The notes below the pieces were generated by a model that saw nothing but the letters and a program-made list of their open reading frames with translations, was not told where the DNA came from and did no database searches. Of a DNA stretch of 40,894 bases, positions 7,404 through 27,410 are shown piece after piece. The stretch is from Clostridia bacterium (GTDB lineage: Bacteria; Bacillota; Clostridia; Oscillospirales; Acutalibacteraceae). The translations under genes and the position numbers were made by a program. Positions within the stretch are counted from its first letter, which is position 1. Every line of letters begins with the position of its first letter. Location: contig JAFOBC010000042.1 in the NCBI GenBank assembly GCA_017382015.1, forward strand, positions 1 to 40,894. Direction: 5' to 3'.

Positions 7404-8669
7404 ATGAAGTTTTTTTCACTCATCATGTCATTCTTTTTATCCATCTTCGGTGTTGCGCCGCCTGCTCAGTCTGTCGATGCATACACTCAGGCAGAGTGGT
7501 ATACTCTTGTTGCTGAGGAGTTCGACCTCGCATACAGCCTTGAGGATAATGACAACTACGACATCGCTGCAGACGACGAATATTTCGCAGCTGTTCAGGC
7601 TTGCCACGACAACAACGTAATCGTTGGCGAATACGATGCAGATGCATACGTAACCAACGTTCTTGTTGCAAAGTCACTTGCAGTTGCCGTAGGACTCGAG
7701 GGTGTAGAAACCCCCGACGAAGTTGCTCTTGACGTTGCTGTTGATGCAGGCTTTGTTAAGGTTTCTGTAAACCTTTTCGGTAAGGCTAAAGAGGTTGTAA
7801 TTACAAAGGCAGAGGCTGATGCAGCCCTTGAAGCAGCCAGCGTTGTATACCTCAACAAAATACAGGCATACACACAGGCTGAGTGGTACGCACTTGTTGC
7901 AAAAGAGTTTGACCTTGCATACGACCTTGAAGACGAAGACAACTACGACATCGCTGCAGACGACGAATATTTCGCAGCTGTTCAGGCTTGCTATGACAAC
8001 AACGTAATTGTTGATGAGTATGTCGCAGATGCACAGATAACCAACATTCTTGTTGCAAAGTCACTTATCGTTGCAGTAGGCCTCAAACTCCCCGGAGTTT
8101 CCGATGAAGTTGCCGTTAACGTTGCTGTTAATGCAGGCTTTGTCGACGCTTCTGTAAATATCAACGGTGAGGTTGAAGAAGTTGTAATGCCCAAGGCTGA
8201 GGCTAACGCAGCTCTTAAAGCAGCAGGCCTTGTATACCTCAACACAAAGGTACCGACTGCACAGCCTTCTTACGTATACACACAGGCTGAGTGGTACGCG
8301 CTTGTTGCAAAAGAGTTTGACCTTGCATACGACCTCAATGACAACGATAACTACGACATCGCTGCAGACGACGAATATTTCGCAGCTGTTCAGGCTTGCC
8401 ACGATAACAACGTAATCGTTGGCGAATACAATGCAGATGCATATGTAACCAACGTTCTTGTTGCAAAGTCACTTGCAGTTGCTGCAGGTCTTGAAGGCGC
8501 AGAAATTCCCGACGAAGGCGCTCTTGACGTTGCTGTTGATGCAGGCTTTGTTAAAATCTCCTTCACCATTTTCGGTAAAGTTAAAGAGGTTTTGATTACA
8601 AAGGCAGAAGCTAACGTTGCTCTTAAGGCAGCAGGCCTTGTATACCTTAACAACAACAGCCTTATCTGA
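7404..8669 (+). CDS. secreted protein made of three ~130-aa tandem domains (unknown family)
   Basis: 421 aa. The signal peptide is MKFFSLIMSFFLSIFGVAPPAQSVDA. Each repeat opens with YTQAEWY(A/T)LVA(K/E)EFDLAY...DNYDIAADDEYFAAVQAC(H/Y)DNNVIV. It has a strong SD and promoter and is followed by a terminator. Confidence 0.8.
   Translation: MKFFSLIMSFFLSIFGVAPPAQSVDAYTQAEWYTLVAEEFDLAYSLEDNDNYDIAADDEYFAAVQACHDNNVIVGEYDADAYVTNVLVAKSLAVAVGLEGVETPDEVALDVAVDAGFVKVSVNLFGKAKEVVITKAEADAALEAASVVYLNKIQAYTQAEWYALVAKEFDLAYDLEDEDNYDIAADDEYFAAVQACYDNNVIVDEYVADAQITNILVAKSLIVAVGLKLPGVSDEVAVNVAVNAGFVDASVNINGEVEEVVMPKAEANAALKAAGLVYLNTKVPTAQPSYVYTQAEWYALVAKEFDLAYDLNDNDNYDIAADDEYFAAVQACHDNNVIVGEYNADAYVTNVLVAKSLAVAAGLEGAEIPDEGALDVAVDAGFVKISFTIFGKVKEVLITKAEANVALKAAGLVYLNNNSLI
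7482..8666 (+). repeat. three in-frame tandem coding repeats (7482-7868, 7869-8276, 8277-8666)
   Basis: Boundaries were read from the recurring TAC ACx CAG GCx GAG TGG TA (YTQAEWY) codons. Copies 1 and 3 resemble each other more closely than either resembles copy 2. Confidence 0.85.
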
Positions 8670-12687: not shown

Positions 12688-13323
12688 TTAATTTTCAAGA
12701 AAATCCAAAGCTTTTTTGTACTTTTCAAGACGAGCAAAATCCGCTTCACCGGGATTTTTGATTCTTGAGATATCCATATTGTGTTTGATATCAGCCATTT
12801 TTACATGCCATGCGTTGCTATCCATCTTTACTGTTTTCAGATAATCCTCATATGAAACACCGTCAGTCTTTGTGAGTATACGTATAGAATTTACGATTCT
12901 GTATGTAAAACCCATTTCAATAAGCTCTTCCGGCGTAACATCAGTATCCTCAATCACATCATGCAAATACGCAACAATTTTGTGTTCGGTGCTCTCAAGC
13001 GAAGCCGCTACTGCCTGCGGATGCAAAAAATAAGGGTTGCCGCCTTTATCATATTGCCCCTCATGAGATACTGCCGAAACCTTAATCGCCAAACCAAGGA
13101 GACGGTTTAACAAAAGCCGTCTTTCCTCGAGTAATACCATAGCTTCATCTTCGGATATAATAACATATTGATCAAACTTAACATCATCAGGCCACATATA
13201 ACGCGCCATTATGCCGCTGCGCACCCATTTTTCTGCACCAAAATGATATACATATCGTTTTCCGTCATCATCTTTGACAACCTCATTCGCATTAAGCTTA
13301 TCCGTTAACTTATAGTAAATCAT
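12688..13323 (-). CDS. HD-domain small alarmone hydrolase (SpoT/Mesh1-type), probable immunity/antitoxin to the upstream RSH toxin
   Basis: 211 aa. NPYFLHPQAVAASLESTEHKIVAYLHDVIEDTDVTPEELIEMGF matches the H..HD..ED(T) hydrolase motifs of RelA/SpoT HD domains. An extra N-terminal domain of about 85 aa is present. Its start overlaps the upstream stop (ATGA at 13320-13323). Confidence 0.75.
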   Translation of the reverse strand: MIYYKLTDKLNANEVVKDDDGKRYVYHFGAEKWVRSGIMARYMWPDDVKFDQYVIISEDEAMVLLEERRLLLNRLLGLAIKVSAVSHEGQYDKGGNPYFLHPQAVAASLESTEHKIVAYLHDVIEDTDVTPEELIEMGFTYRIVNSIRILTKTDGVSYEDYLKTVKMDSNAWHVKMADIKHNMDISRIKNPGEADFARLEKYKKALDFLEN

Positions 13324-14249
13324 CTGTTTCGCACCTTCTCTATACCTTTCGGTCTTTCCATCTTTGATGAAAGTTCTGCCATTTTTTCGTCAAGCTCTAT
13401 TGCTTTGGGATTATCATCTGCCATTGTTCGACGTTGCTCGTACAGCGCATGTAATTCTCCGTTTTTTAAATCAAAGCTCTCTTGCGTATGAAACTGAACC
13501 TCAAAAGATTGCCCTTCAGGATTGGTGAGAACCGCATTTATACCACGGTAAGTTGCATTCTCGTTATCCCATGTGTTTTTCACTCTGTCTACTGTATACC
13601 CTCTTGACTCAAAATCACTAAGACAAGCATTGGTTCCGTCTGCAAGTTCATCCGGAGAATAAACCGCCGTATAGCGTATAACATCATTCATATCCTGAAC
13701 ATCAACATGCTCGCCGGAACCACGGTCATACATTTTTTCATATGTAGAAGACGGTGTTTTCACCCTATATTCAAGACCCTGAAGTTCCGCCATATTTTTT
13801 TCTGCTACATTTTTAACATCATTGGTAATTGCCGGCTCCCTTTCAATGATATCAAAGTAGGAGTTCTTTTCATCGGCGGACATTTTACCAAGCGCTTCAA
13901 CTTGTTTGGCTTTTGATTCATCTGACATTTTATCAAAGCACGCCGGCAATTCATGTTTCGAAGAAATCTCACTTTCTTTTGCAGTTCCTCCCTCAACAGC
14001 ACCGTCAGTTTTTTCTCCATACGAAAAAGCTTTCTGACGCTCAGCATTTTGAGCAGGATTCTCACGAGAAGAACTCATCAATTCAGTTTCATATTCACTT
14101 GCGCCGCCTCTGAAATCGCACAATTCCCGGCTAGCTTCATTCGAACAAAGCTCGGTATTGGCGTCCGAAGTTTCAACAGCTTCGCTTCCGCTTTCTCCGC
14201 CCGCATCAACACTTGTTGATGAAGAATCGCCGTCTCGTAAATCAGACAT
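13320..14249 (-). CDS. RelA/SpoT-homologue synthetase-fold toxin (toxSAS-like) with acidic N-terminal leader
   Basis: 309 aa. Synthetase-fold motifs appear in order: YRVKTPSSTYEK (R.K..S...K), NDVIRYTAV (D..G.R-like), TYRGINAVL (GYR..H-like), FEVQFHTQES (E.Q..T) and HALYE. The first ~120 aa are acidic and low-complexity. The SD is GAGGTGG. Confidence 0.7.
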   Translation of the reverse strand: MSDLRDGDSSSTSVDAGGESGSEAVETSDANTELCSNEASRELCDFRGGASEYETELMSSSRENPAQNAERQKAFSYGEKTDGAVEGGTAKESEISSKHELPACFDKMSDESKAKQVEALGKMSADEKNSYFDIIEREPAITNDVKNVAEKNMAELQGLEYRVKTPSSTYEKMYDRGSGEHVDVQDMNDVIRYTAVYSPDELADGTNACLSDFESRGYTVDRVKNTWDNENATYRGINAVLTNPEGQSFEVQFHTQESFDLKNGELHALYEQRRTMADDNPKAIELDEKMAELSSKMERPKGIEKVRNR

Positions 14250-14268
14250 AATATAACCACCTCAAAAT

Positions 14269-14673
14269 TTATGCTCCCAAAAAGCGTTGTAAAACGTAAC
14301 CGAATAAGTCGATATTCAAGGGGACAATATCATTATTACCTGCAACAAACCTATAAACAAGGTCATTTGAATCAACCAGATAAAAATCGCCGTCGCCCTG
14401 ATCTTCAACTGCAATTAAATTTCTTGTTTTATCAAAACTGCTATGAAGCCACAGGGTTTTGACAACCATATCGGAATTAACACCTTGACCATTATTTATA
14501 CCAAACAGCTCTATATGTTTATATCCCAAATAACCATATTCCAAAACGTACTTTTTCAGCTGTTCGCCAAAAGTTACCCCTGTTTTGGACTCCATCTCAG
14601 AAATCCTGTCTGCAGATATTCTGTTAAACGTGTAATCAACGTCATTGTTTTTTACAAACTCAATTAACATCAT
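14269..14673 (-). CDS. SMI1/KNR4 (SUKH-1) family immunity protein
   Basis: 134 aa. It has the typical SUKH layout: I.E.E...GV.F.EQLKKYVLEYGYLGY...ELFGIN, then a later acidic block with DGDFYLVD. It starts 6 nt after the nuclease-toxin gene, behind an AAGGAGG SD. Confidence 0.7.
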   Translation of the reverse strand: MMLIEFVKNNDVDYTFNRISADRISEMESKTGVTFGEQLKKYVLEYGYLGYKHIELFGINNGQGVNSDMVVKTLWLHSSFDKTRNLIAVEDQGDGDFYLVDSNDLVYRFVAGNNDIVPLNIDLFGYVLQRFLGA

Positions 14674-14679
14674 TACAAA

Positions 14680-15393
14680 TCAACCTCCTTTGGCTCTTGA
14701 TTTCCAGTGTTCAGGTCTTTCAACATTGTTATAATGATTACTCTTCTGCGAGTCGTTTCTCCAGCTTTCACCATCTTTTGTATGCAAGGATGAATAACAG
14801 TTTCCGTGTTCGCTGTCCGCCGTAAGTTCGGCTAAAGGAGAATCATAATCTTGACCTATATGATGCAATTCTATTCTTTCACCGGTTTTAGCATCATACG
14901 GAGCGCGGCCTTTTTCCATCAATTCTCTGTTTGTCATACCGGATTTAGGATCAACATAATCCATATCAATTTTATCTCTCACAAGGCAAACTCTGCCATC
15001 GACATTTTCTTCCCTCAGGTTTGCTTTCTGATAAACTTCAAGCTCTTCAACCGATGAAATATGTTCATTTACTTCATCTGAATAGTTACTTTTTTCGTTT
15101 ATTTCCGCTCTTATTTCCTCAGGGCTTTTTTCACCCTCCACAGAGGGCTGTTCGGCAGCCTCTTCGTTTGTTGAATCGGGTTTTGCAGTTTCTTTGGTAT
15201 TCTGTTTTTCGCCTTCAACCAACTCTGCATTTTCTGATTTTTCCGCTCCGGCAACCAACTCTTGATTGGCTTCTTCGCCTTCTTTGCCGCTATAGAGCTC
15301 AGTTGCAGCATCATTAGCTTCAACAGACGATTCGTTTGCCGAATCCGAAGAACCGCTGCTTACCGATACATCTGAACCGTCTTCTGAACACAT
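14680..15393 (-). CDS. HNH/EndoVII-fold nuclease toxin of the LHH type with acidic N-terminal leader
   Basis: 237 aa. The C-terminal ~90 aa contain GERIELHHIGQDYDSPLAELTADSEHGN...LH, with the LHH codons at 14860-14868. The N-terminal ~120 aa are S/E-rich. The SD is AAGGAGG. Confidence 0.7.
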   Translation of the reverse strand: MCSEDGSDVSVSSGSSDSANESSVEANDAATELYSGKEGEEANQELVAGAEKSENAELVEGEKQNTKETAKPDSTNEEAAEQPSVEGEKSPEEIRAEINEKSNYSDEVNEHISSVEELEVYQKANLREENVDGRVCLVRDKIDMDYVDPKSGMTNRELMEKGRAPYDAKTGERIELHHIGQDYDSPLAELTADSEHGNCYSSLHTKDGESWRNDSQKSNHYNNVERPEHWKSRAKGG

Positions 15394-15407: not shown

Positions 15408-18098
15408 TTACTTTCCGATAATTTCATTAATATAAATGCGCTCAATTTCACTGAAAAGCGCTTTGTCTTTCTTCCTGATATCCCATTGCTCAATCAAACA
15501 ATTCATTAAACAGTTTTTGCTGTTCAACACATTGGATGATCTGAGTGACGGATTAGAATTTATAAAATTCTCCAAGCTTGTATTGACATCACATATTTTA
15601 CATGTCTGAGTTACCAAGGGGTTTATGCTTCTGGAAAACCTTATAAATAGACCGGGGTCGGCCAATAAATTCAGAACATCTTCAGGTATACACTCACAAA
15701 AGCACTTGCAAGCTCTGCAAATAGCGCTCCTTTTATTTGTTAATACCTCATATCCCTTATCGCTTCTTATATCAATACAATTGTGTTGCGTTGCACAAAT
15801 AACATCCTGCCTGGAAATATATTTTCTGCTGTCGAGCATAAAACTGTTGGCATAGACGGGCTTGACCAGCTTAGGTCTGTTATCGCCTTCGGAATAAACC
15901 GCCGCAACACCTTGCTTGAGCGTGGAGAGTGCCGCTATCTGTTCATCTGTCATGTTCATAGCGCCACCCATCAATGTTCTCTCATCCTCAGCTACTGTTC
16001 GATGGACGATCTTTAAATTAGTGTTTTTTATCAGATCCGGTGCCAATTTCGACGGAATCTGATCGGCAACAACAAAGCCCTGTCCTTTGCTTCGCATCTC
16101 CGCAAGCATATTGCAGAAAAACTCAACAGCCGCACCCCTTGGGTCAGCATTTTCACCTGTTCCGCTTTGGACATTTTTCAAAAGCCTGTGTGCTTCTTCT
16201 ATGAGTAAAAGATGTCTGATTTCAAGCTGGCAATCCTCTTGTTGACGTCTGTACTCCAAAACCTTGATGAGCAAAAGACTGATGATAAATGCTTTTACAT
16301 CATCATCGCCAATATCCTCAATTTCAATTATAGTATTATTTTCAAGCAAATGCTCCATCGGGAAAGATTTTTTCACATTAAGCGCAGAGCCTTTGCTACC
16401 TATACGCAATGAATTTATGCGTGCCTGTAACGAGCCAATCAGGTCGTTACGCATTTTTGAATCGTAACCCATCTCCGTAACAATTTGCGGTATTTTGAAG
16501 TACAAATCCTCAATTGTCGGGTAAACTTCAACACCGTTACGATTCACATTATTGTCTATATCCCAGCCGTAATCCTCATAAATGCTGTATATGGCTTTTT
16601 CAAGCACATACGGCATAGGTGTATACATAATAAAGCTCGCTTTAAATGCAGCATAAACAAAATCTATATGAGTCTGAATAGAAACCGATTTCACGTTTCC
16701 GTTAACGTCCTTGTATGAAACGCGTTCGAAAGGATTGATGCATAACCTGCTGGCATTAGGTTCACTGGAACCCACGCTGTATATACGCAAATCATCAAAT
16801 CCGAGTTTATAAAGCTCCCAATATTCTTTTTTGGCGGGTTCTATAATTAAAAACGGCTTTCTTTTTGAGTTGTTTTTTCCTACGCTGCATATCAAACTCT
16901 TTAAAGTATTTGTCTTACCTGAACCGGTTAATCCAATTACCAGGCAATGCCTGTTAAACTCGTTTATATCAATCAGATATTCATTGTTGGTAGGATTACC
17001 GTTTTCAAGTATATGACCAACAGATAAATCTCCTTGAATTTCTCTGTTAACATCAAAAGCAACATAATCTTTTACACCGAATCCAGCCGTATCAACAACA
17101 GGCGGCGCAGAATACACAGCCAACTCCTTACTGCTCAGCAATGTACCGTAAACCGGATAATCAGACTTACAGAAATTATTATGTGTATACTTTCCGGCAT
17201 CAATCAGTCTGTGATAACAACCAGGCCGATGATAAACCGGATGAACAGGCTCAGGAATTGACTCTTCGCCCAGATAAGCAGACGAAAGCAAACCGCCAAG
17301 AAGTCCGGCATCGTCATTACTGGTAGCTGCAAAATTTATAACCGTACTCCACTCACCAACAGCAATGCTTTCTTCCAACTTTTCAACAAAAGCCTGGATT
17401 TTTTTGTTGTATTGTTCACTATGAAAATAGCTCTTTTTGTATGAAGTGGTTTCTACATTATCACTATCCGTATATGTCACATCGGAAAGCTGACTGCATT
17501 CCGTAGCAAGAGTCAACCACATATGCTGTCTTACTATAGATTCACTCTTGCTGACAGGAGTTGCAAAAATAGAAATTTGCCACTTTTTGTTTTTCATTCC
17601 GCGTACTACTTTCTCAAGTTGATTTGAGAATTTAAAATTTTCAGAACCGGTCGAATTGCCTTTTAAAAATCCGCCATTGCTCCAATTCTGATTGTTTAAT
17701 ACAGTAGCAGAATCAAAAACTGCATCGTTATCAGATTCGTTTCTTGAAAACTGTATCTGAGGAAAAATTCCGGAATATGTATTTTTGATCACTTCAAGAT
17801 ATTGTATCGGGCCACCTATAAACACATCTATTTTATTTCCGTCACAATTAATAACAGTAGATACGTTAATCTTAAGAGAATGTAAACTCACAAAAACTTC
17901 TGTCAGAATATTCCATAACGGTCTTTCTTCTACATCCCATAAATTGCTGATTTCGGTAATTTTTAAATATGCATATGAACCGACAGCATAATCTTCAGAT
18001 ATTCCATCGGTAACTCTGCTTGAATTCATAGCGTCAAGCATTACCACATACCTATCTATAATACGTTTACTTTTCTCCTCGAATTCGATTCTTTTCAT
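15408..18098 (-). CDS. HerA/FtsK-superfamily (DUF87-like) P-loop ATPase with Cys-rich C-terminal region
   Basis: The track ORF runs to 18143. I prefer the ATG at 18098 (MKRIEFEE...), which has GGAG about 10 nt upstream. Walker A GLTGSGKT is at 16911-16934. Walker B HLLLIEEAH, typical of HerA/DUF87, is at 16188-16214, and ADQIPSKL follows. The C-terminus holds CRACKCFCEC...CKIC...CLMNC. Confidence 0.75.
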   Translation of the reverse strand: MKRIEFEEKSKRIIDRYVVMLDAMNSSRVTDGISEDYAVGSYAYLKITEISNLWDVEERPLWNILTEVFVSLHSLKINVSTVINCDGNKIDVFIGGPIQYLEVIKNTYSGIFPQIQFSRNESDNDAVFDSATVLNNQNWSNGGFLKGNSTGSENFKFSNQLEKVVRGMKNKKWQISIFATPVSKSESIVRQHMWLTLATECSQLSDVTYTDSDNVETTSYKKSYFHSEQYNKKIQAFVEKLEESIAVGEWSTVINFAATSNDDAGLLGGLLSSAYLGEESIPEPVHPVYHRPGCYHRLIDAGKYTHNNFCKSDYPVYGTLLSSKELAVYSAPPVVDTAGFGVKDYVAFDVNREIQGDLSVGHILENGNPTNNEYLIDINEFNRHCLVIGLTGSGKTNTLKSLICSVGKNNSKRKPFLIIEPAKKEYWELYKLGFDDLRIYSVGSSEPNASRLCINPFERVSYKDVNGNVKSVSIQTHIDFVYAAFKASFIMYTPMPYVLEKAIYSIYEDYGWDIDNNVNRNGVEVYPTIEDLYFKIPQIVTEMGYDSKMRNDLIGSLQARINSLRIGSKGSALNVKKSFPMEHLLENNTIIEIEDIGDDDVKAFIISLLLIKVLEYRRQQEDCQLEIRHLLLIEEAHRLLKNVQSGTGENADPRGAAVEFFCNMLAEMRSKGQGFVVADQIPSKLAPDLIKNTNLKIVHRTVAEDERTLMGGAMNMTDEQIAALSTLKQGVAAVYSEGDNRPKLVKPVYANSFMLDSRKYISRQDVICATQHNCIDIRSDKGYEVLTNKRSAICRACKCFCECIPEDVLNLLADPGLFIRFSRSINPLVTQTCKICDVNTSLENFINSNPSLRSSNVLNSKNCLMNCLIEQWDIRKKDKALFSEIERIYINEIIGK

Positions 18099-18184: not shown

Positions 18185-19300
18185 TTAAAACAAGCTTTTA
18201 ATCATAAAAAATATCGCTACTATGATTATAACTATTGGCACTATTGAATATATCCATCCTGAAAGGTAAGAACCAAAACCCGCAAACGAACCGAACGCGC
18301 TGACAAACAGAAACGCCAAAGCTAACGATACCAATAAAATGCCAAATATCGGAAAACTGCGTTTCTTTTTTGAAAACATTCTTGACAGTATACCTATAGT
18401 TGTCAACTGTGTCAACAAATACAAAACCGACAGAACAGCCGCTGTGATTAGCCAGACTGTACAAAACTCTTTTATGCTTGCAAAAAAGTTACCGTCTGAT
18501 GTTGCCGCAACAAAGCAAACGAAAAAGAACATAAGCGCTGACAGAATACCGTATACAATCGCTTTTACAGAGCGCTGAAAGCCAACCTTGCTTTCGTACC
18601 CATTGCTGATTACATGGATTTCATCAGCCATCAAAACGCCATTTTTACGATATTTACCATGAACTTCTACTTCAGCATTATCAACAAGCTGCAAACCTCC
18701 GGATATAGTGCCATGAATATTTACAGGAATATCGTTATACTGCTGATAACCTAATTCATCTTCATCGTGTTCAACGCGGACAACAAATCTGTGCAAAACA
18801 TCCTCGAGCCTTTGTCTGTATACAATGGCATCGTAAATTTTCTGCGGTAAAAATCTTCTGTATTCACCATCTTCTTTACCGGAACTGGTGTACTGCGAAA
18901 CTTTACCGCGAATTGTTCGCTGATTAAGAAAAATTCCATTATTCACAGTTGACTGTGTGCTTGTGCTTTTTGTAGTTAAAAGCTGGGGACTGACCGTGTC
19001 AGGAAAGCTCGGTTTGAGATTACTGTTGTTGCCGCTTTCATCCGAAGGAGATCCCCAGGGATCAAATTTAGGCTGCATATCGGTTTGATTACTTTTGTCA
19101 AAACCACTACTGCCTGCGCCCGTCGGAAAATCGCCGAACGCAAAATCGTTTTTTTCGCCAGGCAACATGCATCTTCCAAAAAGATCGCCTTTTTCTACCG
19201 ACTCCACTTGCAAGGCTGCACCGCACACCGGGCAAGCCAATGCGTTTAAATCTTCGGTATATGGTCTTCCCGGACAATTATTACAATATTTAACTATCAT
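18185..19300 (-). CDS. zinc-ribbon membrane protein (N-terminal CxxC..CxxC, central beta-rich domain, 4 C-terminal TM helices)
   Basis: 371 aa. The N-terminus is YCNNCPGRPY...ACPVCGAAL. A low-complexity linker and a soluble domain follow. The hydrophobic C-terminus is IVYGILSALMFFFVCFVAA ... IVPIVIIIVAIFFMI. Confidence 0.65.
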   Translation of the reverse strand: MIVKYCNNCPGRPYTEDLNALACPVCGAALQVESVEKGDLFGRCMLPGEKNDFAFGDFPTGAGSSGFDKSNQTDMQPKFDPWGSPSDESGNNSNLKPSFPDTVSPQLLTTKSTSTQSTVNNGIFLNQRTIRGKVSQYTSSGKEDGEYRRFLPQKIYDAIVYRQRLEDVLHRFVVRVEHDEDELGYQQYNDIPVNIHGTISGGLQLVDNAEVEVHGKYRKNGVLMADEIHVISNGYESKVGFQRSVKAIVYGILSALMFFFVCFVAATSDGNFFASIKEFCTVWLITAAVLSVLYLLTQLTTIGILSRMFSKKKRSFPIFGILLVSLALAFLFVSAFGSFAGFGSYLSGWIYSIVPIVIIIVAIFFMIKSLF

Positions 19301-19345: not shown

Positions 19346-20860
19346 TTAACCAAACGGATTATTTGTGGAGGAATTATCCGTAAAAATATTGCCGGCATTA
19401 TTTCCAAACGGATTACCGGCTCCGTTTCCAATCTGAGAGGAGGAAGAATTTTGTCCACCAAGAGGATTTTGAACAAAACTGCTACCCGAATTGCCTCCGG
19501 ACACAGCACTGCTGTTTCCCAATGGATTATAAGAAAACGGATCAGATGCGGGATTAGTCTCTTTAGTTGTACCATCAAAAACTAAACTTTTAAAGGGATC
19601 ATTCTTCTCTTTTTCAGATTGTAGTTTCTTTTGTTCATCTTCTGCATCACTGACAAAACCGGGCACCGGCATGCCTTTCGTTTCGGCATACTTAGCGGCT
19701 GAACCCTTTTTTGCAGAGCCAAACTCACCATATGTAATTGCCCACAGCACACAGAAAATCAACCTCAAGTATTCTATATCAATAAACGATCCGGCAAAGA
19801 ATTCCAAGATTAATACTGCAGCTACACAGCATATAATAGAGAAAAGCAAGCTCTTCTTTAATATCTTGTTTGAGTCATGGCAGAAATACATCTTTCCAAT
19901 CGACCAGGCTACACCCAGCATGCACAAAAATATAATTCTCAAAAATGCATACAGGGCATCATTCTTATAAACAAACCTTGTGGAAAGAAGATTTCTGTCT
20001 GTGTTAAAGCCTTTCGCCTGCTCCAGACTCTCTGCCAACTGAGAAACATCCTCGCATCTTACAAACACGCCTCCTGTACTGTCTGCAAGCTTCTTGAGGA
20101 AACTTTCATTACAACCATCTATGCCGATTGTGCTTACACTTATTAAGTTTTTCTTGCATAATCTCGCTACACTTCCAGTTCCAAATGAACTGCTGTGTCC
20201 ATCACTTACCAAAAGTATTTTAGGCGAAACTCCCGCTCCGGCTAATTTACCGTCGCTGAAATCTTTCACTATTGTCTTAATGCTGGTAAGAATCTCCGTT
20301 CCACCCATAGATTCAAAAGACATAAGCTGAACATCACTATCATCATATTTACCCATTGGTTTTATCAGCTCTGCATCATAAGCAAACCTGTAAACAGCAT
20401 ATGGTTCATCTACATTGTCGCTGGTCATAACATCTTTGATAGCCTGCACTCTTAAATCTTCTGTTCCGTCCATCGAACCGGAATCATCTACCAAAAAGAT
20501 ATACGATGTCGGCTCGTAATAATCTCGTCCGCCTAACTCGTATAAAAATTCAAACAAGCAGGAAAATGCAACCACAGCAGCCATAGCAATAATACCCAAA
20601 GTACAAGCCTCTTTGATATTACGCTTTTTTTCTTTGGTCGACACATCTGCTTTCACCGCCAAAATGATAAAAAGAATTATAAACATCAGCACAGCAAAAA
20701 CTAAGAAATAAACAGAAATGCCTAACGGTGTCCATATTTTCTCTGTCAAGAAAGTGAATGCCAATTCACCAATCAGCCAAAAAATAACACCTGTCAGCGC
20801 AGTTAGTATCAAATGCTTTGACACACCTTTTCCTGAAGATTTCTTCATCTTCTTTTTCAT
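19346..20860 (-). CDS. polytopic membrane protein with a vWA domain in a loop and a G/N/S-rich tail
   Basis: 504 aa. Three TM helices precede a vWA domain whose MIDAS motif DDSGS lies at 20474-20488 (IFLVDDSGSMDG; later LLVSDGHSS). Three more TM helices follow. The ~110-aa tail carries NPLG x2 and NPFG x2. Confidence 0.75.
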   Translation of the reverse strand: MKKKMKKSSGKGVSKHLILTALTGVIFWLIGELAFTFLTEKIWTPLGISVYFLVFAVLMFIILFIILAVKADVSTKEKKRNIKEACTLGIIAMAAVVAFSCLFEFLYELGGRDYYEPTSYIFLVDDSGSMDGTEDLRVQAIKDVMTSDNVDEPYAVYRFAYDAELIKPMGKYDDSDVQLMSFESMGGTEILTSIKTIVKDFSDGKLAGAGVSPKILLVSDGHSSSFGTGSVARLCKKNLISVSTIGIDGCNESFLKKLADSTGGVFVRCEDVSQLAESLEQAKGFNTDRNLLSTRFVYKNDALYAFLRIIFLCMLGVAWSIGKMYFCHDSNKILKKSLLFSIICCVAAVLILEFFAGSFIDIEYLRLIFCVLWAITYGEFGSAKKGSAAKYAETKGMPVPGFVSDAEDEQKKLQSEKEKNDPFKSLVFDGTTKETNPASDPFSYNPLGNSSAVSGGNSGSSFVQNPLGGQNSSSSQIGNGAGNPFGNNAGNIFTDNSSTNNPFG

Positions 20861-20949: not shown

Positions 20950-20980
20950 AACCCAAGGGTTGAGAATCAACCCTTGGGTT
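20950..20980 (-). terminator. perfect 12-bp hairpin between the tubulin-like gene and the downstream block (possible partial terminator or processing site)
   Basis: aacccaagggtt-gagaatc-aacccttgggtt lies 9 nt after the stop at 20989. There is no strong T-run on the minus strand. Confidence 0.4.
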
Positions 20981-20988: not shown

Positions 20989-23900
20989 TTACAACAACAT
21001 ATATGTACGGCAATAATTAAGCTCATCAATAAATTTATTGAAATTATCAATAAGATCCTGAGCAGTAGTATATTTTTTGGGGTAGCAATATAACTCCTTG
21101 TAGTTTGAGTTAAGGTAATACGGTTCTATTGCCTGCGCCCTAGCCTGAGGATCACGAATGCGCATAAGCTCACCCGCCATAGCAACTTGCATTTCATCCA
21201 TTACATAATCCCAACTTGCATAAGCCGTGCGAGTCTGCTCCATCTCATTAAACTTATCCACAATGCCCTGAACCGCAACATCATTGCAAACCACATTTTT
21301 AACAAATGCAGAGAATACAAGATACCACTTAAAGGGAATATCAAGCTTGTCATTCTTTCTCATATAATCGTCAAAGAATTTGATGGGAGGCTCATACTGG
21401 CTATCGCTGTACTTGCAGAACCATCCGCTCTGCGGATCATACGAAAGAGCATCAACCTTAATAGCCTTAACAAACAAAGCAACGTTGTTTCTGAGAGCTG
21501 CAAGATTGTCCATAGTGTAGAAGAAATTGGCTCCTTCATAGAAGGCCTTAGCTTCTACAACAAGCTTTGCCATTCTCATATCAGCACGGACAAGTCTGTA
21601 TATGTTTTTGAGATCGAAATCATTATCCGGCCTTTCGGTCTGCTTTGCCTTCAAACCGGCATTAGCGATATTAGTATCAAGGAAAATTACTTTTGTTTTA
21701 TTAATATGCAGATCCGCCTCAATACTGTGAAGTGCATCTATCCAGGTTGCAGCGGGATTATTGGCTTTTATCTGCAGCAGGCGTGCTTCAATCTGAGCCA
21801 TAAATTCCGGTGATTTATCGGTAAGTTCAAGGAACTTACATTTGCTGTTTTCAGACCAAATATACTTATACTTAATACCATAATCAACAGCATCACGTAT
21901 AATGTCATACGCTCTTCTGTCCTGGTTTCTTACACCGTTTTCGTCAGTAGCTCTGTCGGCATCAGAAATAACCAGGTCTGTTCTACCGCGTTCAGCATAA
22001 TATGCTTCGGCATCCATACCGAAAATTTCAGGAAGGTTATTCTGCCATTTTTCTGTTACTTCATCAAGATGACGTCCTGCCTGTGCTTCCGGGCTTTTCT
22101 CTGATCTGAAGTATTCCTGGGCATAGTTGCGCATTCCGGAAACCATTGCAAGAGGAACAAAGGTTTTGGACATAGCCATTGTAATACATGTCTTATGCTC
22201 ACAAACACTTCCGTCGCCCATATATGCAACATCAACGAAGTTATCACCAAATCTACTATGAAGCTCAGAAACAATAGCAGTATTAAGATTGCGGGTCTCG
22301 TTAAGCAGAATGACCGTTGCCTTTTTGCTGAACTCATTGGCTGTGTTATGATCTACCTCAAACTTAAGCATAAGGCTATCGATAAGTGAATCAACAATAT
22401 TGGACGCTGCTGAACTCAGAGCATTATTTCTCAGATTGGTATCGTTCCAGATATTGTTTATATCAGCTATCGTAACCTGCTGGTTATTGTTGTTTCTGGC
22501 AATAATACTGTTTGCGTCGCCATAAACAATAACCATAAGCTTTTCAAGCATCTGTGAAACAAGATCTCCTGTAACAGAATTAAACAGCGATCTGATTTCA
22601 TCAGCAAGCGCGGAAGGATTTTCTGAAATATTTTTCCACTTTGCCTTTCTGTCCGGAGCAAACATACTTGCCACAAACTGCTGTTTTACGGCATCTACTT
22701 TTTCTTTATCAATGTATCCGTCAAAAATTGTGCGGAACAAATCATTCTGATTACGTGCATCGTTCAAAGCAAATGCATTAAGAGAATATATAGATGAATT
22801 ACCTTCCACACGAAGTGTGCTCTGTGCAAATGCTGTAGCGTCATTGGAAAGCATATCCATTACGCATTTTATAATCGGCACATAAATTTCGAAGGTTTCG
22901 CTATTGAATGCATTCAGTTTTGAGCGAACACCATCGATAATGTACCTCATAAATCTGCTGTAAAAGCTATACTCGAAATATGCCTCGGAATATTTCTGGC
23001 AAAGGCTTATGAACACTTCAATTTCGTCAGAGTGAGGATTTCTGTCGGAATCCAGAGTCTGCTTACCTTTTCTTAAAGCCTCCGTAGCTCTGTCCAGCTC
23101 TTGTTGCTTTTCATTTACAGCCAACGCAATATTATTGGAGTAATCAGCAAGCAGCTGAATAAAACCTTTAAGTCTTCCGTCATGACCGGAAAGCAACACA
23201 ATAGCTGCAAAAGGACCGCTGTTATACAGGAAATTCTGATCTTCAAATTTGGAAATTATGGAGCTTGCAAGTGAGTCAATAATGTTGTTGCAAACAGTCT
23301 GAGATATTGAATTGATGTTTCTGTTTACTTTTTCGGTAGCCTCAGTTACGGTATCATCCGTACCATCTACCTTAAACATTTTTTTGACAGGATATGCAGT
23401 TTCATCAGGATAAACCCTCAGCTTATCTCCGGAAATATTCAACTGAGCTGCTACAAAAGCGTAAATTTCATCTATGCTGCCGATTTTGCAGCTTGATGCT
23501 GCCTGACAAACAGACTGCTGAGTAAATTCAAACGCTTTGCTCCACTCTTTGTAAACTTCCAAAAAAGCCTCGTTGGAACAATACGCTACCATTTCATTAC
23601 GAGGGAAATAAATGGAACGAACGCCCAGTGCAGAAAAATTATAGTTCATAAAAGCAGGCAGAAGAGTGTTTTTGATTCCGCTGTTATCTGCAGGTGTTGC
23701 ATCATCTGCAACCTTACCAATGTCAAGATCCCACGTATTTCCCAACGATGTTGCATTGGAAAGCTCACTGATGAGTGATTGGGTCATATTAGCTCCGTCA
23801 GTTGCACCGTTACGGAATAAATCCATTAAACTCTGTGCAGTAGTCTCGATAATATCTTCGCATCTGTAACAGGTAGCTGTGGGAGAAACGATATAAACGT

Positions 23901-24753
23901 TACCTCTTTCAAAAAGTCTCTTGTGAGAAGTATATGTCTTGTCAAGGGTCTTTACAGAATACACAGTATCTGTAATCTGTTCATTACCGACACTCATAAA
24001 ATAGTCAAGCTCTTTAAATGCTGCGTATCCGTTTCTCTGAAGGTTTGACCATCTATCAGGGTTACCGCCAATGGCAGGAATTGACTTCTGCACATCAGGA
24101 GTATAGAAAACGCCATACATTTCTGATTTAATGCTACGATCTTCATGAAGGTCATCCAAAAGCATTCTCACCATGTAACTGATATCGATAAAAGTACCGC
24201 TGCCTGTACCACCGGACACACCAGCCACAATTACAACCTGAAGAATTTCATTGGCTCCAACCGTCAATGAGTTAATCTTGGAACTGATTCGAGCTCTGAG
24301 AGCTTCATATTTAGGTGTTGCGCAAAGCATAACTCTGCCAACAGCTCTGCGCTGTTTTGCACCATCGCCTTTAATTGGTTCAGCCGGCACATCAACGCTA
24401 AGCCATGACTCAACTACAGGGGGCCTTTTAATCAACAATCCATCCGCCGACGAATCATAAACAGGAAAAGTATCGTTCAGTGTAAGATTTCCGCCTGCCT
24501 GAACATTAAGTTCATCCATATCCCCTTGAGCAGTATCCACCGCAAGGAACTGAATACGACCTGTGTCATAAAAATCTCTGAGATAGACACCTTTGGTGGT
24601 ATTAACAGTTTTGCAACCCATACCGCCAAGACCGATAACCAAAACTTTGCCCGATGACGTAATCTCAGCTTTTGTAACTTTTTTTACAAGGCTTCCGCCG
24701 CCTGAACTTGAAAGCTCATCTAAAACTTTTCTCATTGAAATAGGATCTGGCAT
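20989..24753 (-). CDS. giant tubulin/FtsZ-superfamily GTPase-like protein (N-terminal GTPase domain plus ~1000-aa helical extension)
   Basis: 1254 aa. T1-like VLVIGLGGMGCKTV (aa 37-50), T3-like GDGAKQRRAVGR (aa 129-140) and the tubulin signature VAGVSGGTGSGTF are all present. The GGTGSG codons are at 24196-24213. An AAGGAGA SD lies 8 nt upstream. Confidence 0.75.
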   Translation of the reverse strand: MPDPISMRKVLDELSSSGGGSLVKKVTKAEITSSGKVLVIGLGGMGCKTVNTTKGVYLRDFYDTGRIQFLAVDTAQGDMDELNVQAGGNLTLNDTFPVYDSSADGLLIKRPPVVESWLSVDVPAEPIKGDGAKQRRAVGRVMLCATPKYEALRARISSKINSLTVGANEILQVVIVAGVSGGTGSGTFIDISYMVRMLLDDLHEDRSIKSEMYGVFYTPDVQKSIPAIGGNPDRWSNLQRNGYAAFKELDYFMSVGNEQITDTVYSVKTLDKTYTSHKRLFERGNVYIVSPTATCYRCEDIIETTAQSLMDLFRNGATDGANMTQSLISELSNATSLGNTWDLDIGKVADDATPADNSGIKNTLLPAFMNYNFSALGVRSIYFPRNEMVAYCSNEAFLEVYKEWSKAFEFTQQSVCQAASSCKIGSIDEIYAFVAAQLNISGDKLRVYPDETAYPVKKMFKVDGTDDTVTEATEKVNRNINSISQTVCNNIIDSLASSIISKFEDQNFLYNSGPFAAIVLLSGHDGRLKGFIQLLADYSNNIALAVNEKQQELDRATEALRKGKQTLDSDRNPHSDEIEVFISLCQKYSEAYFEYSFYSRFMRYIIDGVRSKLNAFNSETFEIYVPIIKCVMDMLSNDATAFAQSTLRVEGNSSIYSLNAFALNDARNQNDLFRTIFDGYIDKEKVDAVKQQFVASMFAPDRKAKWKNISENPSALADEIRSLFNSVTGDLVSQMLEKLMVIVYGDANSIIARNNNNQQVTIADINNIWNDTNLRNNALSSAASNIVDSLIDSLMLKFEVDHNTANEFSKKATVILLNETRNLNTAIVSELHSRFGDNFVDVAYMGDGSVCEHKTCITMAMSKTFVPLAMVSGMRNYAQEYFRSEKSPEAQAGRHLDEVTEKWQNNLPEIFGMDAEAYYAERGRTDLVISDADRATDENGVRNQDRRAYDIIRDAVDYGIKYKYIWSENSKCKFLELTDKSPEFMAQIEARLLQIKANNPAATWIDALHSIEADLHINKTKVIFLDTNIANAGLKAKQTERPDNDFDLKNIYRLVRADMRMAKLVVEAKAFYEGANFFYTMDNLAALRNNVALFVKAIKVDALSYDPQSGWFCKYSDSQYEPPIKFFDDYMRKNDKLDIPFKWYLVFSAFVKNVVCNDVAVQGIVDKFNEMEQTRTAYASWDYVMDEMQVAMAGELMRIRDPQARAQAIEPYYLNSNYKELYCYPKKYTTAQDLIDNFNKFIDELNYCRTYMLL

Positions 24754-24779: not shown

Positions 24780-27410
24780 TTATTGTTTGGAATATTCAAT
24801 TTCAATATGAGCACAAGGAACAGAACCGTCTGAGTTCTTTTCACCGCTCAAAACTGAAACTGATAACATAGCACGCTTATTGTTGGGATTAACCGCAGCT
24901 TTATTTTTAATAAGCTTCGGCGAATGGAAAACAACCTGCTTCGCTATGCTTTTTTCAACACTGATAACAATACCGTTTTTACCGTAGAGTGTACCCAATA
25001 AATGCACCCTTGCAAACGTAGGTATCAGATTTACTTCAGCAAAATCTTTTACACTTTTTACCTTTTTGCTGTTTTGAATAGTGGTAGCCATAAAATCACT
25101 GTAAAACTTGACAAACAAACTTACTACTGTTGCCATGTCACTGTTTCTTACCTTTGAGCCACCGATAAAGTATCTCTCATCAAACTCGTTGCTGCGCATT
25201 TCTTCTTCGCGAGGAATTACAGTGCCACCTTGCATCGGATCAGAAAACTGTCCCCAGACGTCATTGCCTGATGCTTGTGCAGGAGTATCTGCACTTGCTG
25301 GCGGGAAAGTAAACGAACCGCTGTTGGAAGCAGAACTGCCGCCGGCCATCGGGTTAACGTCACCAAAAGGAGTGGAATTTGCTGAAGTACCCGCCATCGG
25401 GTTAACGTCACCGAAAGGAGTGGAATTTGCTGAAGTACCCGCCATCGGGTTAAATACGTAACCTGCTCCCCCGGGATTAAATATCGGGTCACCTGCTCCC
25501 GGGTTGAAATTCGGCAAACCGCCGGGCACCGTATTTACTACAGAGGTGTCGTGATCAATATTAGGGTTAGAGTAAACAATCTTAGTGTTTCTATATGTGC
25601 CGGATGCATCGATAATACCCTCTGCAATGCTTACAACTCGCATTTTACCCTTAACCTTGTTAGAGGCCTTCTTGGCAAAATATGAGAAAAGAATAAGCGC
25701 AACAATCAACAGCAGAATAGTGATAATTATCATTGCAACTGCTACGGGATCGTGAACTTTGATTTTGAAAGTTGTTTCAACAACATTTCCTTGTGCATCT
25801 TCAAAGGCAACTGTTGCCAAGGTTGAACTCCACTTTTTACCGCTTACAACAAGCTGGTCGCCGTTAAGAGTTACATCCGCTACATCTGCCGAACCTATCG
25901 ATGAAACAGAGCCTGTAATCTTATCGTTTTCGGAATCTGCCACATACTGATAAACATCGTCAACTGTAACAGTCTTATTCTTATTTACTTTTATCTCAGG
26001 GATATCACCCACTATGTAGAGCGGTTTATTGCTGGACTTTACCTCCAAGGTATCTTCTCGATAAACAGTATCCCAGTCCAGGCGAATTGTAATATCGTAG
26101 AAGCAATCCTCTGGAATAATAAAACTGCCAACAAAAGAGAAACCGTCTCTTACAAGCGTTATCTCTTTCTTGTTTTCGGGGTTTGCTCTGGGAACACAAA
26201 TCGCTTTGGCTGATTTTACTGCCGCATAAATAGCCTCGTCATTAATATCAACACCATCGTAAGCAAGCCACGTTTTGATGCCAATCTCATCGTTGCTGTA
26301 TGCAATGCCACTCGGATTACCGGTCGGCAAAGTAATTTTGCTTGTAAGATTCATTTTAAAATGCTCTAACAAGCCAACGTGTATATCTTCACCCTTTATT
26401 CCCTCAACAACCAGAAGCCATTTTCCGGTCTTCGGCATTGTTACCTTGATGCTTGCGGCTCTTGCATCAACATCAAACCTGACATTACCTGAGTTTCTCA
26501 ACTCAATTTCGTTACCGTCAGGGTCAAACAGCTTTATTTTTCCGTTAGCTATTGAATTTTCATCGCCGCCTGCGATTCTTATGTTGGCTTCCACAACGCT
26601 GGGGCTTACGTTAATCGAACACTCGTGTTTACCTCCGTCACCCGGAATAGTGGCAACGGTTGTGTAATTCAGGTCACATACATCAGCAAGAAACTCAATA
26701 AGCAGCTGTTCAATCTCTTTGATGCTGCTGATCGATTTAAACTTACCGTTAGTTGTTTCCGAAATATTCTTAAGCTTCTTAAGGCCCTCACCGTTAGAAC
26801 CCATGGAATTTGTACCGTCAGATTTCAGATAGTCGTAACCTACAGTATAAATCGGGCAATTATTCTTCTTAGCCCAAAGCAATGCAGAAGCTTCATTTTC
26901 TTCACATCTTGATAAAGCCAACGAATCATTATCGAAGTCATTGACACCATCTGTGAAAAGAATTACCGCCTGCTGCCTTTCATCGGTCTTATTTGCCTTC
27001 AGGAGCTCCGTTGCCTTGAATACCGCATTACCTATGCCCGTACCACCGTTAAAGACAATATCAGAAACGTTCTTTTTGATGGTAGCTATATCAGTAAGGC
27101 TCTCCAGGCTGAGAAGAGCATCATTTCCCTTGGCATCTTTTGTTAACACAGTTGCCGTTTTATTAAAGCCGACAACACCAACCTTGCTGCCTTCTACCGG
27201 CATCATATTTATCAGCATTCTGACTGCGGCCAAAGCTGTTCTTGTCTTGTCAGATTCTTTCATAGAACCACTGCTGTCTATAACAACAACCAAGTCAAGA
27301 GGTTTATATTCTCTTTCTTTTTCGATGTCGGCTGCACTTCCCGAAACAAAAAGCGAAGAAAGCACGACAATCAGGCAAAGAACAACACCTAAGATTTTTT
27401 TAATTCTCAT
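24780..27410 (-). CDS. secreted vWA-domain protein with Ig-like middle region, single TM helix and cytoplasmic repeat-bearing tail/domain
   Basis: 876 aa. It has a signal peptide, then the MIDAS motif DSSGS in LVVVIDSSGSM (about 27264-27278), then FTDGVND. A beta-rich region of ~300 aa follows. The TM helix VAVAMIIITILLLIVALILFSYF is at about 25680-25748. The tail carries FNPG x2 and NPMAG x3, followed by a ~140-aa C-terminal domain. Confidence 0.75.
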   Translation of the reverse strand: MRIKKILGVVLCLIVVLSSLFVSGSAADIEKEREYKPLDLVVVIDSSGSMKESDKTRTALAAVRMLINMMPVEGSKVGVVGFNKTATVLTKDAKGNDALLSLESLTDIATIKKNVSDIVFNGGTGIGNAVFKATELLKANKTDERQQAVILFTDGVNDFDNDSLALSRCEENEASALLWAKKNNCPIYTVGYDYLKSDGTNSMGSNGEGLKKLKNISETTNGKFKSISSIKEIEQLLIEFLADVCDLNYTTVATIPGDGGKHECSINVSPSVVEANIRIAGGDENSIANGKIKLFDPDGNEIELRNSGNVRFDVDARAASIKVTMPKTGKWLLVVEGIKGEDIHVGLLEHFKMNLTSKITLPTGNPSGIAYSNDEIGIKTWLAYDGVDINDEAIYAAVKSAKAICVPRANPENKKEITLVRDGFSFVGSFIIPEDCFYDITIRLDWDTVYREDTLEVKSSNKPLYIVGDIPEIKVNKNKTVTVDDVYQYVADSENDKITGSVSSIGSADVADVTLNGDQLVVSGKKWSSTLATVAFEDAQGNVVETTFKIKVHDPVAVAMIIITILLLIVALILFSYFAKKASNKVKGKMRVVSIAEGIIDASGTYRNTKIVYSNPNIDHDTSVVNTVPGGLPNFNPGAGDPIFNPGGAGYVFNPMAGTSANSTPFGDVNPMAGTSANSTPFGDVNPMAGGSSASNSGSFTFPPASADTPAQASGNDVWGQFSDPMQGGTVIPREEEMRSNEFDERYFIGGSKVRNSDMATVVSLFVKFYSDFMATTIQNSKKVKSVKDFAEVNLIPTFARVHLLGTLYGKNGIVISVEKSIAKQVVFHSPKLIKNKAAVNPNNKRAMLSVSVLSGEKNSDGSVPCAHIEIEYSKQ
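25345..25453 (-). repeat. 48-bp in-frame tandem repeat (2.3 copies) encoding NPMAGTSANSTPFGDV
   Basis: Units start at 25345, 25393 and 25441. Copies 1 and 2 differ at a single position. Confidence 0.9.

Follow-up and report, generated by a model that had tools for sequence, protein, structure and literature searches.

In the classical view of polymorphic toxins, cassettes are exchanged by recombination (Zhang et al. 2012, PMC3482391), and LHH-SUKH pairs as well as the TNT, WHH and GH-E toxins are regarded as classical interbacterial families (Zhang et al. 2011/2012); a mode based on a HerA-like ATPase and an acidic leader is not among the trafficking modes set out by these authors. In Firmicutes, GAP1-N2 conflict systems that contain tubulin and vWA proteins have been described by Kaur et al. 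2020 (PMC7159879), with no mention of a HerA-like ATPase or of toxin-immunity cassettes. Here, we report on a locus in a 40,894-nucleotide (nt) stretch of DNA from a member of the Acutalibacteraceae (Clostridia bacterium, assembly GCA_017382015.1, contig JAFOBC010000042.1, positions 1 to 40,894; hereafter referred to as the window), in which a gene for a HerA/VirB4-like ATPase is directly followed by genes for two unrelated toxins, an LHH nuclease and a RelA/SpoT-like (RSH) protein, that each open with an acidic N-terminal leader. All results are computational. We give about even credence to the reading that these leaders, which are predicted to be disordered and which carry short motifs, are a system-specific tag for ATPase-driven export of swappable toxin-immunity cassettes.

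The ATPase gene (15408..18098, on the minus strand, as are all window genes described here unless stated otherwise) encodes a soluble, 896-amino-acid (aa) P-loop ATPase of the DUF87 type (Pfam DUF87 E=1.4e-12). The LHH toxin gene (14680..15393; 237 aa; Pfam LHH E=1.9e-20) starts 14 nt past the ATPase stop codon, consistent with its placement directly downstream of the ATPase in a first-pass annotation of the window. It is followed by genes for a SUKH_5 (SMI1/KNR4) protein (14269..14673; Pfam SUKH_5 E=1.2e-13), which is the putative immunity protein for the nuclease, for the RSH toxin (13320..14249; 309 aa) and for an HD-domain hydrolase (12688..13323), which is the probable immunity protein for this second toxin. 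These genes are tightly packed, with intergenic gaps, from the ATPase onward, of 14, 6, 19 and -4 nt; both toxin open reading frames (ORFs) have a good ribosome-binding site, and no terminator-like site with a strong score is found on the minus strand before position 11453 is passed.

The position of leader-bearing genes relative to the ATPase was assessed in related loci; the ATPase search identified 264 detectable homologues, 412 loci were drawn from one genome per species, and 80 loci were fetched. In 385 kb of those loci in which the ATPase is at least ~45% identical to that of the window, leader-like ORFs represented 31 of the 47 ORFs of at least 150 aa located within 3 kb downstream of the ATPase, as compared to 1 of the 188 such ORFs located elsewhere (Fisher p=9e-26), and this single ORF carries a signal peptide. 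Six look-ups that started from LHH proteins yielded 12 places with upstream DNA, and at all 12 a DUF87 ATPase abuts the LHH gene, often with overlapping stop and start codons. Together with the tight gene packing, these data support the first-pass proposal that the toxins belong to the ATPase system rather than representing free-standing toxin-antitoxin (TA) pairs. In loci with an ATPase at least ~45% identical to that of the window, which represent Oscillospiraceae, Ruminococcus and Eubacterium metagenome-assembled genomes, the gene after the ATPase nearly always encodes an acidic N-terminus, with SUKH_5 and then a second leader-bearing toxin usually coming next. Seven families of acidic-leader toxins were found (LHH, TNT, WHH/colicin-DNase, GH-E, Gln-amidase, Endonuclease_NS_2 and small alarmone synthetase (SAS)-like), in addition to one protein with a sub-threshold Rib_hydrolase match and several large proteins with no Pfam match; an immunity-type gene follows the toxin in most cases, with small genes following TNT in relatives. 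The expectation that such leaders would be joined to diverse C-terminal domains behind a homologous ATPase was thus borne out, including by the RSH and TNT toxins, which share a leader and differ after it.

Both window toxins open with acidic N-terminal regions of ~65-86 residues that contain almost no basic residues. The leader of the LHH toxin (residues 1-86; 15136..15393) is acidic and Ser-rich, and an AlphaFold2 (AF2) model based on a 44-sequence alignment predicts it to be disordered (pLDDT below 50, no secondary structure); the structured remainder (14680..15135) comprises a nuclease domain of the LHH HNH/EndoVII type (Pfam residues 154-235; 14689-14934) and, ahead of it, a conserved pre-toxin helix region (IRAEINEKSNYSDEVNEHISSVEELEVYQ). 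In the RSH toxin, the acidic leader (residues 1-66; 14052..14249) belongs to the same leader family as those of the TNT toxins in sister loci, and residues 136-309 (13323..13844) resemble a small alarmone synthetase, i.e., a RelA/SpoT-like nucleotide pyrophosphokinase. Pfam and matches to solved structures confirm the initial identification of these two different C-terminal domains, and Pfam detects no signal peptide, LXG, WXG, RHS or HINT domain in either toxin, in line with the earlier remark that no known trafficking domain is recognisable. The two motifs that the first-pass annotation had cited in its proposal of a shared leader were reproduced exactly on translation, with nt 15289-15327 encoding SVEANDAATELYS and nt 14142-14180 encoding AVETSDANTELCS. 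Each leader contains three motifs in which E-L is followed by a hydrophobic residue, at near-identical positions in the two toxins: ELY at 15292-15300, ELV at 15253-15261 and ELV at 15217-15225 in the LHH leader (Leu 33, 46 and 58), and ELC at 14145-14153, ELC at 14118-14126 and ELM at 14076-14084 in the RSH leader (Leu 34, 43 and 57). Overall similarity between the two leaders is marginal, with a BLASTP E-value of 0.013, a best ungapped 13-mer with 8/13 identities that was equalled in 39 of 2000 composition-preserving shuffles, and no extended similarity between the coding DNAs; hhalign comparison of the first-position (A4) and second-position (A3) leader alignments recovered only 11 columns around TEL[YC] (P=0.007, probability 5.6%). 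The description as a conserved leader of ~36 residues is therefore too strong, as a common homologous domain is not demonstrable; what stands is that both toxins carry acidic regions with three matching motifs, above chance. The LHH leader starts with Met-Cys (15388-15393), and first-position leaders in general almost always open in this way (MCSE, MCD, MCPE; alignment A6); Cys is also found in place of Tyr at the last position of E-L-[YC] motifs and is part of the [FY]xDC motif of another clade.

Across relatives, it is the motif that is kept. In the first 80 residues of 23 leaders, [DE]L[YCFMLVIW] was observed 45 times, as compared to 5.2 times expected from shuffles (8.7-fold), and nearly every leucine in these 23 leader regions is inside a motif. 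Leu33 is at least 90% conserved across a 44-protein LHH-leader alignment, the remainder of which is hypervariable, and 10 second-position leaders show no variation in their E-L pairs (alignment A3). The sequence surrounding the motifs evolves fast; LHH leaders of the nearest loci are 39-46% identical to that of the window, as compared to 77-83% for the ATPase and up to 88% for the LHH domain. The leaders are predicted to represent not a folded domain but intrinsically disordered acidic regions with short linear motifs.

Leader type also co-varies with ATPase clade. Where the ATPase is at least 51% identical to that of the window, nearly all leaders carry 2-4 [DE]L-hydrophobic motifs (none in locus L007) and never [FY]xDC; in six loci with 45-49% identity, leaders are acidic with neither motif; and where identity is 35-38% (Lachnospiraceae and others), most leaders carry 2-3 [FY][DE]DC motifs and almost never [DE]L. 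Specifically, the 25 leader proteins in loci with at least 45% identity contain 45 [DE]L-hydrophobic motifs, all of them in loci with at least 51% identity, and zero [FY]xDC, whereas the 35-38% clade shows 23 [FY]xDC as compared to one [DE]L. A second type of system (L091-L098; e.g., L091:1430-11061 and L095:4107-11034) encodes one or two Dynamin_N GTPases and, in some loci, a WYL regulator, with the gene order (WYL), Dynamin_N, small single-transmembrane (TM) protein, DUF87 ATPase, LHH and SUKH_5; the ATPase, with 1017-1175 aa, is longer than that of the window and 28% identical to it (E=1e-68). The N-termini of the toxins in these dynamin-type loci are not acidic and are conserved separately, as exemplified by MIExL.KE..E.P.Q..KGS.D.P.FA in Bacilli. 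The same cassette is thus found with different ATPase subtypes via different N-termini, which is the outcome predicted by a system-specific handle. This co-variation provides indirect support for the earlier suggestion that the leader is a recognition handle for the ATPase complex, from which we infer physical recognition; the link to vWA genes that had also been suggested holds for one subtype, whereas relatives use dynamin-like GTPases instead. Two of the dynamin-type loci (L095 and L096) are located on an element that resembles an integrative and conjugative element (ICE), with ParA/ParB, RepA_N and TraG, and L091 adjoins Mrr and TOTE genes. In loci of the Lachnospiraceae type (L024-L046; e.g., L024:4945-14824), four conserved genes are located between ATPase and toxin, encoding a ~575-aa protein, a zinc-ribbon protein, a ~150-aa protein and a classical AAA+ ATPase (PF00004 with AAA_lid_3), and the toxins are large (320-1400 aa) with repeated [FY][DE]DC motifs.

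With regard to the first cassette, more than 300 relatives of the LHH toxin were found, the structured part of the toxin is 87-88% identical to its counterparts in L081 and L082, and SUKH_5 follows LHH in every locus examined. Comparison of L083 with the window showed 77% identity for the ATPase, 59% for LHH and 22% for SUKH; toxin and immunity protein thus diverge together between close loci. In one relative (L090; 2304-4397 and 7075-7962), a fusion of TIR to Tubulin_2 is encoded directly upstream of the ATPase, and a third acidic-leader toxin (Endonuclease_NS_2), for which no dedicated immunity gene is obvious, is located between ATPase and LHH. A protein of ~415-440 aa is encoded downstream of the TNT cassette in several loci (L001:5739-6989, L081:7252-8502, L086:12202-13470 and L090:11346-12662), as well as in L002 (13910-15166), where the TNT toxin is absent; the L086-L090 copies show a weak Card1_endonuc match, and the gene may provide an additional immunity protein or effector, or may simply be a conserved neighbour.

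With regard to the second cassette, the RSH toxin domain matches the solved small alarmone synthetase 8vx3 (SaSAS) with E=3.1e-10, and the HD protein, whose start overlaps the toxin stop by 4 nt, matches the solved (p)ppApp hydrolase 7smg with E=1.1e-27; the corresponding Pfam matches, RelA_SpoT (E=1.3e-4) and HD_4 (E=3e-5), are both below curated cut-offs. A synthetase-fold toxin is thus found next to an HD pyrophosphohydrolase and, based on the domain and solved-structure matches, both cassettes are credible toxin-immunity pairs. The RSH toxin domain also matches the last 180 residues of the XopAD/skwp type III effectors found in plant pathogens (NCBIfam NF041399, E=1.7e-30), suggesting that these effectors end in the same pyrophosphokinase-like domain. 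Residues 1-70 of the RSH toxin match the N-termini of TNT toxins, i.e., NAD-glycohydrolases, which occupy the same second position in sister loci (L081-L085, L001 and L016; BLASTP E 3e-9 to 8e-6). The match is confined to these residues, with 51-52% identity in the leader as compared to 21-24%, which represents background, beyond the junction. When 1.84 billion representative proteins were searched exhaustively with a profile of the second-position leader, only 12 clusters were identified; 8 of these represent TNT toxins, one is TNT-like on inspection (it keeps the GGGKQY motif, with no Pfam match), two are leader fragments, one is a 160-aa protein with no Pfam match, and one is an unrelated repeat protein. 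The RSH cassette of the window thus represents a rare replacement on a TNT-type leader. A word-indexed search with the same alignment returned two truncated proteins only, probably due to low-complexity words, and a metagenome scan with the leader alignment returned one 1.3-kb contig with the same LHH-SUKH-TNT order and no upstream DNA.

The AF2 model of the ATPase (pLDDT 82) matches HerA (4d2i), VirB4/TrwK, Sir2-HerA and DndH-C, with Foldseek probabilities of 1.00 to HerA 4d2i and to VirB4 4ag5 (TM-score 0.75 relative to target); a P-loop RecA-like core and a HerA/VirB4 fold place the protein in the HerA/FtsK-VirB4 superfamily. No TM segment was predicted in the ATPase. Its C-terminal domain, which is helical and contains cysteines that are invariant in alignment A2 (C794, C797 and C863), is the only part with a consistently net positive charge. 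Immediately upstream, the product of a gene at 18185..19300 has a zinc ribbon at its N-terminus and four TM helices towards its C-terminus (residues 247-371). Homologues of this protein are encoded upstream of the ATPase in 21 loci, and a zinc-ribbon/TM protein is present in groups A and B. It is likely the membrane partner of the ATPase; a membrane partner is found in all subtypes, including a tail-anchored protein in dynamin-type loci. A basic docking surface on the zinc-ribbon protein was considered and rejected, since its cytoplasmic part has no consistent positive charge; the charge of the ATPase C-terminus is a weak lead. The ATPase also shows a partial match to NCBIfam NF033849 ("serine-rich protein"; model positions 583-1098 of 1163), and some relatives (L036) have an ATPase that is extended at its own N-terminus by an acidic stretch. 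Phage records contained only two partial ATPase matches, and a phage origin was rejected. Matches on plasmids were distant DUF87 proteins of actinobacteria, including one from a mobilisation region; this homologue (L099; Rhodococcus opacus plasmid pRoPD630_2, NZ_CP080956.1:152251-155349; 34% identity, E=1e-92) is flanked by a MobC/relaxase module on one side and a type IV coupling protein on the other, a context that hints at transport across the cell envelope as the wider role of this ATPase family.

In the mechanism that we consider most likely to account for these observations, the machine would consist of the soluble HerA/VirB4-like ATPase and its zinc-ribbon/4-TM partner, next to vWA membrane proteins and a tubulin-like GTPase. 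The ATPase complex would recognise the E-L-hydrophobic motifs, with the net-positive C-terminal domain of the ATPase as a candidate docking site, and the unfolded acidic N-terminus would be threaded or passed on to the membrane complex; the toxin would be exported against competing bacteria, while cognate immunity proteins would shield the producer and its kin. Export is favoured because the cassettes are stacked and co-diversifying, because the toxin families are interbacterial, and because protein substrates of this ATPase superfamily are known from secretion. FtsK-HerA-superfamily ATPases that handle proteins, i.e., EssC/EccC, VirD4 and VirB4, act in secretion, and to our knowledge protein substrates in this superfamily are known only from secretion systems; in the Dot/Icm system of Legionella, Glu-rich unstructured signals of substrates are read by the coupling complex. 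A broader proposal, which we put forward tentatively and hold at somewhat short of even credence, is that these loci represent a previously unrecognised Gram-positive export pathway, in which a HerA/VirB4-like ATPase, a small membrane partner and a cytoskeletal or membrane-remodelling GTPase (tubulin-like with vWA, or dynamin-like) would use clade-specific disordered N-terminal signals to deliver toxins to competitors; the signals in the window, polyanionic stretches with E-L-hydrophobic motifs, would possibly mimic nucleic acid for a motor that resembles a DNA pump.

A number of points weigh against export by a leader-reading ATPase. Recognition of the leader by the ATPase complex and export of the toxins are both deduced from sequence. 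The locus encodes no obvious channel beyond the 4-TM partner, and dynamin-type relatives have a single-TM partner only; in addition, the toxins are small, and no domain for receptor binding or translocation can be recognised in them. The hhalign comparison does not support treating the two window leaders as a single homologous domain. Relatives adjoin WYL, defence-type and ICE genes and include one TIR-tubulin fusion, which fits an anti-phage context, and the structural neighbours of the ATPase include the HerA proteins of Sir2-HerA and DUF4297-HerA besides VirB4. Finally, each locus was viewed over 10 kb on each side, such that any distant orphan leader-toxins would fall beyond this range, and the forward context test started from LHH-family proteins only.

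Several of these points would also be consistent with an intracellular conflict or anti-phage system, in which the leader would still be a handle and the destination would be the cytoplasm of the producer itself: the toxins would be effectors restrained by their immunity proteins and, following a trigger sensed via the vWA, tubulin, kinase or dynamin modules, the ATPase would grip the leader and either free the toxin from its immunity protein or assemble with the toxin, leading to abortive infection. The structural closeness of the ATPase to Sir2-HerA and DUF4297-HerA, the absence of entry domains in the toxins and the weak HerA and mad8 matches in PADLOC can be read in this way, as can the WYL regulators, Mrr/TOTE neighbours or ICE-like element of dynamin-type relatives, the TIR-Tubulin_2 fusion in one locus with Card1-like genes recurring nearby, and an upstream kinase, PP2C phosphatase and vWA proteins that resemble the tubulin/vWA systems of Kaur et al. 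2020 (PMC7159879). However, dedicated immunity genes of families typical of interbacterial toxins (SUKH), which most cassettes carry, toxin/immunity co-diversification and stacked cassettes are a signature of kin-discriminating antagonism, known HerA-effector defence systems have no immunity genes, and no protein in the locus reaches a PADLOC system model beyond the weak ATPase and kinase matches; we thus consider an intracellular destination, although the main rival, to be less likely than export. More doubtful still is that the leaders are acidic solubility or auto-inhibitory tails that act in cis, e.g., as DNA-mimicking masks for basic toxin domains, and resemble each other by compositional coincidence, with no relation to the ATPase. 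While the marginal similarity within the window, the fast evolution of the leaders (39-52% identity) and the recovery of only 12 clusters by the second-position profile would agree with this explanation, it is made improbable by motif positions that are conserved in otherwise hypervariable sequence, by the 8.7-fold motif enrichment over shuffles, by the presence of the same leader type on nucleases, NADases, a deamidase and a nucleotide pyrophosphokinase that differ in fold and charge, and by the strict placement after an ATPase with whose clade the leader type co-varies. The other role that the first-pass annotation had offered for the leader, i.e., a recombination target whose shared DNA would enable cassette swaps by homologous recombination, can be largely dismissed despite the classical precedent (Zhang et al. 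2012, PMC3482391) and a TNT-to-RSH replacement exactly behind the second-position leader, since the leader-coding DNA of nearest relatives is only ~58% identical, far too low (SUKH DNA is 73% identical), the two window leaders show no extended DNA similarity, and there are no orphan cassettes downstream in the window.

The ATPase and its partner are preceded in the window by three further genes, which encode a vWA protein of 876 aa that carries both a signal peptide and a single TM helix (24780..27410; Pfam VWA_2 and VWA; kept in 12 loci), a 1254-aa Tubulin_2 (FtsZ/tubulin-like) protein (20989..24753; Pfam Tubulin_2 E=8e-47; kept in 17 loci) and a multi-pass vWA membrane protein with the vWA domain between predicted TM helices (19346..20860; Pfam VWA E=3.6e-8; 18 loci). 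The 128-nt intergenic gap between the latter two genes contains a hairpin with a perfect 14-bp stem (AACCCAAGGGTTGA…TCAACCCTTGGGTT; 20950-20980), which may serve for attenuation or RNA processing within the operon. Three membrane proteins of the locus contain stretches of low complexity that are rich in Gly, Asn and Ser and repeat NPF, NPM and FG-like motifs, i.e., the multi-pass vWA protein in its C-terminal tail (19346-19700), the 876-aa vWA protein past its TM helix (~25200-25700) and the zinc-ribbon protein in its middle (18900-19150), and L013 has GFGS repeats at the equivalent place. Further upstream (29047-38620), the encoded proteins are one of 1086 aa that matches no family, a PP2C phosphatase, a protein kinase of 1513 aa with a C-terminus reminiscent of a PD-(D/E)xK nuclease motif (DIVAIKDFSMQLIEVKC), a PGDYG protein and a SprT-like HExxH TM protein; this gene set resembles a kinase/PP2C/vWA triad. 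On the plus strand, 7404-8669 encodes a secreted 421-aa protein with three tandem repeats of ~140 aa (AYTQAEWYALVAKEFDLAYDLEDEDNYDIAADDEYFAAVQAC), which is unrelated to the toxins and was the only protein wrongly picked up by the acidic-N-terminus filter.

If the leader is an export signal, it would represent a new means of antibacterial-toxin delivery in abundant gut and rumen Clostridia (Oscillospiraceae, Ruminococcus and Lachnospiraceae) and some Bacilli, bacterial groups in which mechanisms of antagonism are poorly known, by a route that would lack all hallmarks of type VII secretion. It would also add to the few motors of the HerA/FtsK/VirB4 superfamily that handle protein substrates and would tie bacterial tubulin- and dynamin-like proteins to toxin trafficking. 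An intracellular defence system would be unusual as well, since its ATPase would use a disordered handle to act on toxin-immunity pairs. In either case, the short motif and the leader provide a testable handle and a search key for unannotated toxins.

Among described systems, polymorphic toxins in general, including the LHH-SUKH pairs of contact-dependent inhibition (CDI) and related systems, share with the locus a constant N-terminus, exchangeable toxins and downstream immunity as well as the families LHH, WHH, GH-E, TNT, Gln-deamidase and SUKH. The constant N-terminus is joined to unrelated C-terminal toxins and, as judged by gene content, a putative cognate immunity gene (SUKH_5 or HD protein) is located immediately downstream of each toxin, and the arrangement thus fits the architectural definition of a polymorphic toxin system, with the exception of putative trafficking and of orphan cassettes. 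By contrast with these systems, the N-terminal module is outside the listed trafficking domains, the toxins are unusually small, and no orphan arrays are seen, with no orphan toxin-immunity cassettes or toxin fragments found downstream within the window. The EssC-dependent type VIIb secretion system (T7SSb) with its LXG toxins is likewise found in Firmicutes and has an FtsK-HerA-superfamily ATPase beside toxins with an N-terminal targeting region, variable C-termini (TNT, nucleases) and downstream immunity genes. Pfam analysis of the locus proteins, however, detects no WXG100/EsxA, LXG, EssA/EssB/EsaA or Lap partners, the ATPase has a single DUF87/FtsK-like P-loop, where EssC has three FtsK domains, with no FHA domain or TM segment and is closer to HerA/VirB4, the leader is a predicted disordered acidic stretch while the LXG targeting region is a helical bundle, and association with tubulin-like/vWA or dynamin-like proteins is a feature of the present loci; membership in T7SSb is thus rejected. 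Sir2-HerA (Nezha) and DUF4297-HerA also place a hexameric ATPase of the HerA fold beside a toxic effector, and in some relatives of the present locus the neighbourhood is similarly one of mobile elements or defence; here, however, immunity genes, N-terminal leaders, extra N- and C-terminal ATPase domains and a membrane partner are present. The window locus encodes neither Sir2 nor DUF4297, such that the likeness is one of fold only, and assignment to a known HerA-effector defence system was rejected, as PADLOC yielded only weak HerA (16-43 bits), mad8 and kinase matches and NCBIfam HerA_antiphage scored 31 bits as compared to a cut-off of 800.

Type IV secretion systems (T4SS) share the VirB4-like ATPase fold, and a distant homologue of the window ATPase is encoded in a plasmid mobilisation/T4SS region; the Glu-rich unstructured signal of Dot/Icm type compares with the acidic leader described here, although the signal here is N-terminal while theirs is C-terminal, and the window has no VirB6, VirB8, VirD4 or relaxase genes. 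Tas1-type (p)ppApp synthetase effectors and the toxSAS/small-alarmone-hydrolase pairs similarly combine a SAS-like toxin with a following HD protein that resembles a (p)ppApp hydrolase, whereas here the toxin would be delivered or tethered via an acidic leader and an ATPase, rather than by a type VI secretion system or as a free TA pair. GAP1-N2 systems comprise a GAP1-N2 GTPase with zinc ribbons and a protein with FNIII repeats, in addition to tubulin and two vWA proteins; with these systems, the window shares Tubulin_2, a multi-TM vWA protein, a second vWA protein and a nearby kinase with a PP2C phosphatase; no GAP1-N2 GTPase or FNIII component was detected by Pfam, which was the only scan applied to the large unannotated proteins. 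The tubulin/vWA content is also similar to that of the FtsZl-1/vWA membrane-remodelling systems that Makarova and Koonin are said to have described in 2010. No literature that joins DUF87/HerA with polymorphic toxins, LHH/SUKH, tubulin or dynamin was found in a search that did not extend to subscription-only papers. As the locus shows the architecture of polymorphic toxins, is distinct from T7SSb and from known HerA defence systems, and has no counterpart in the literature found, we therefore regard it as a new module on the known polymorphic-toxin plan; overall, the comparison suggests polymorphic toxins with a new N-terminal module that is coupled to a HerA/VirB4-like ATPase, in an apparently undescribed machine of gut Clostridia.

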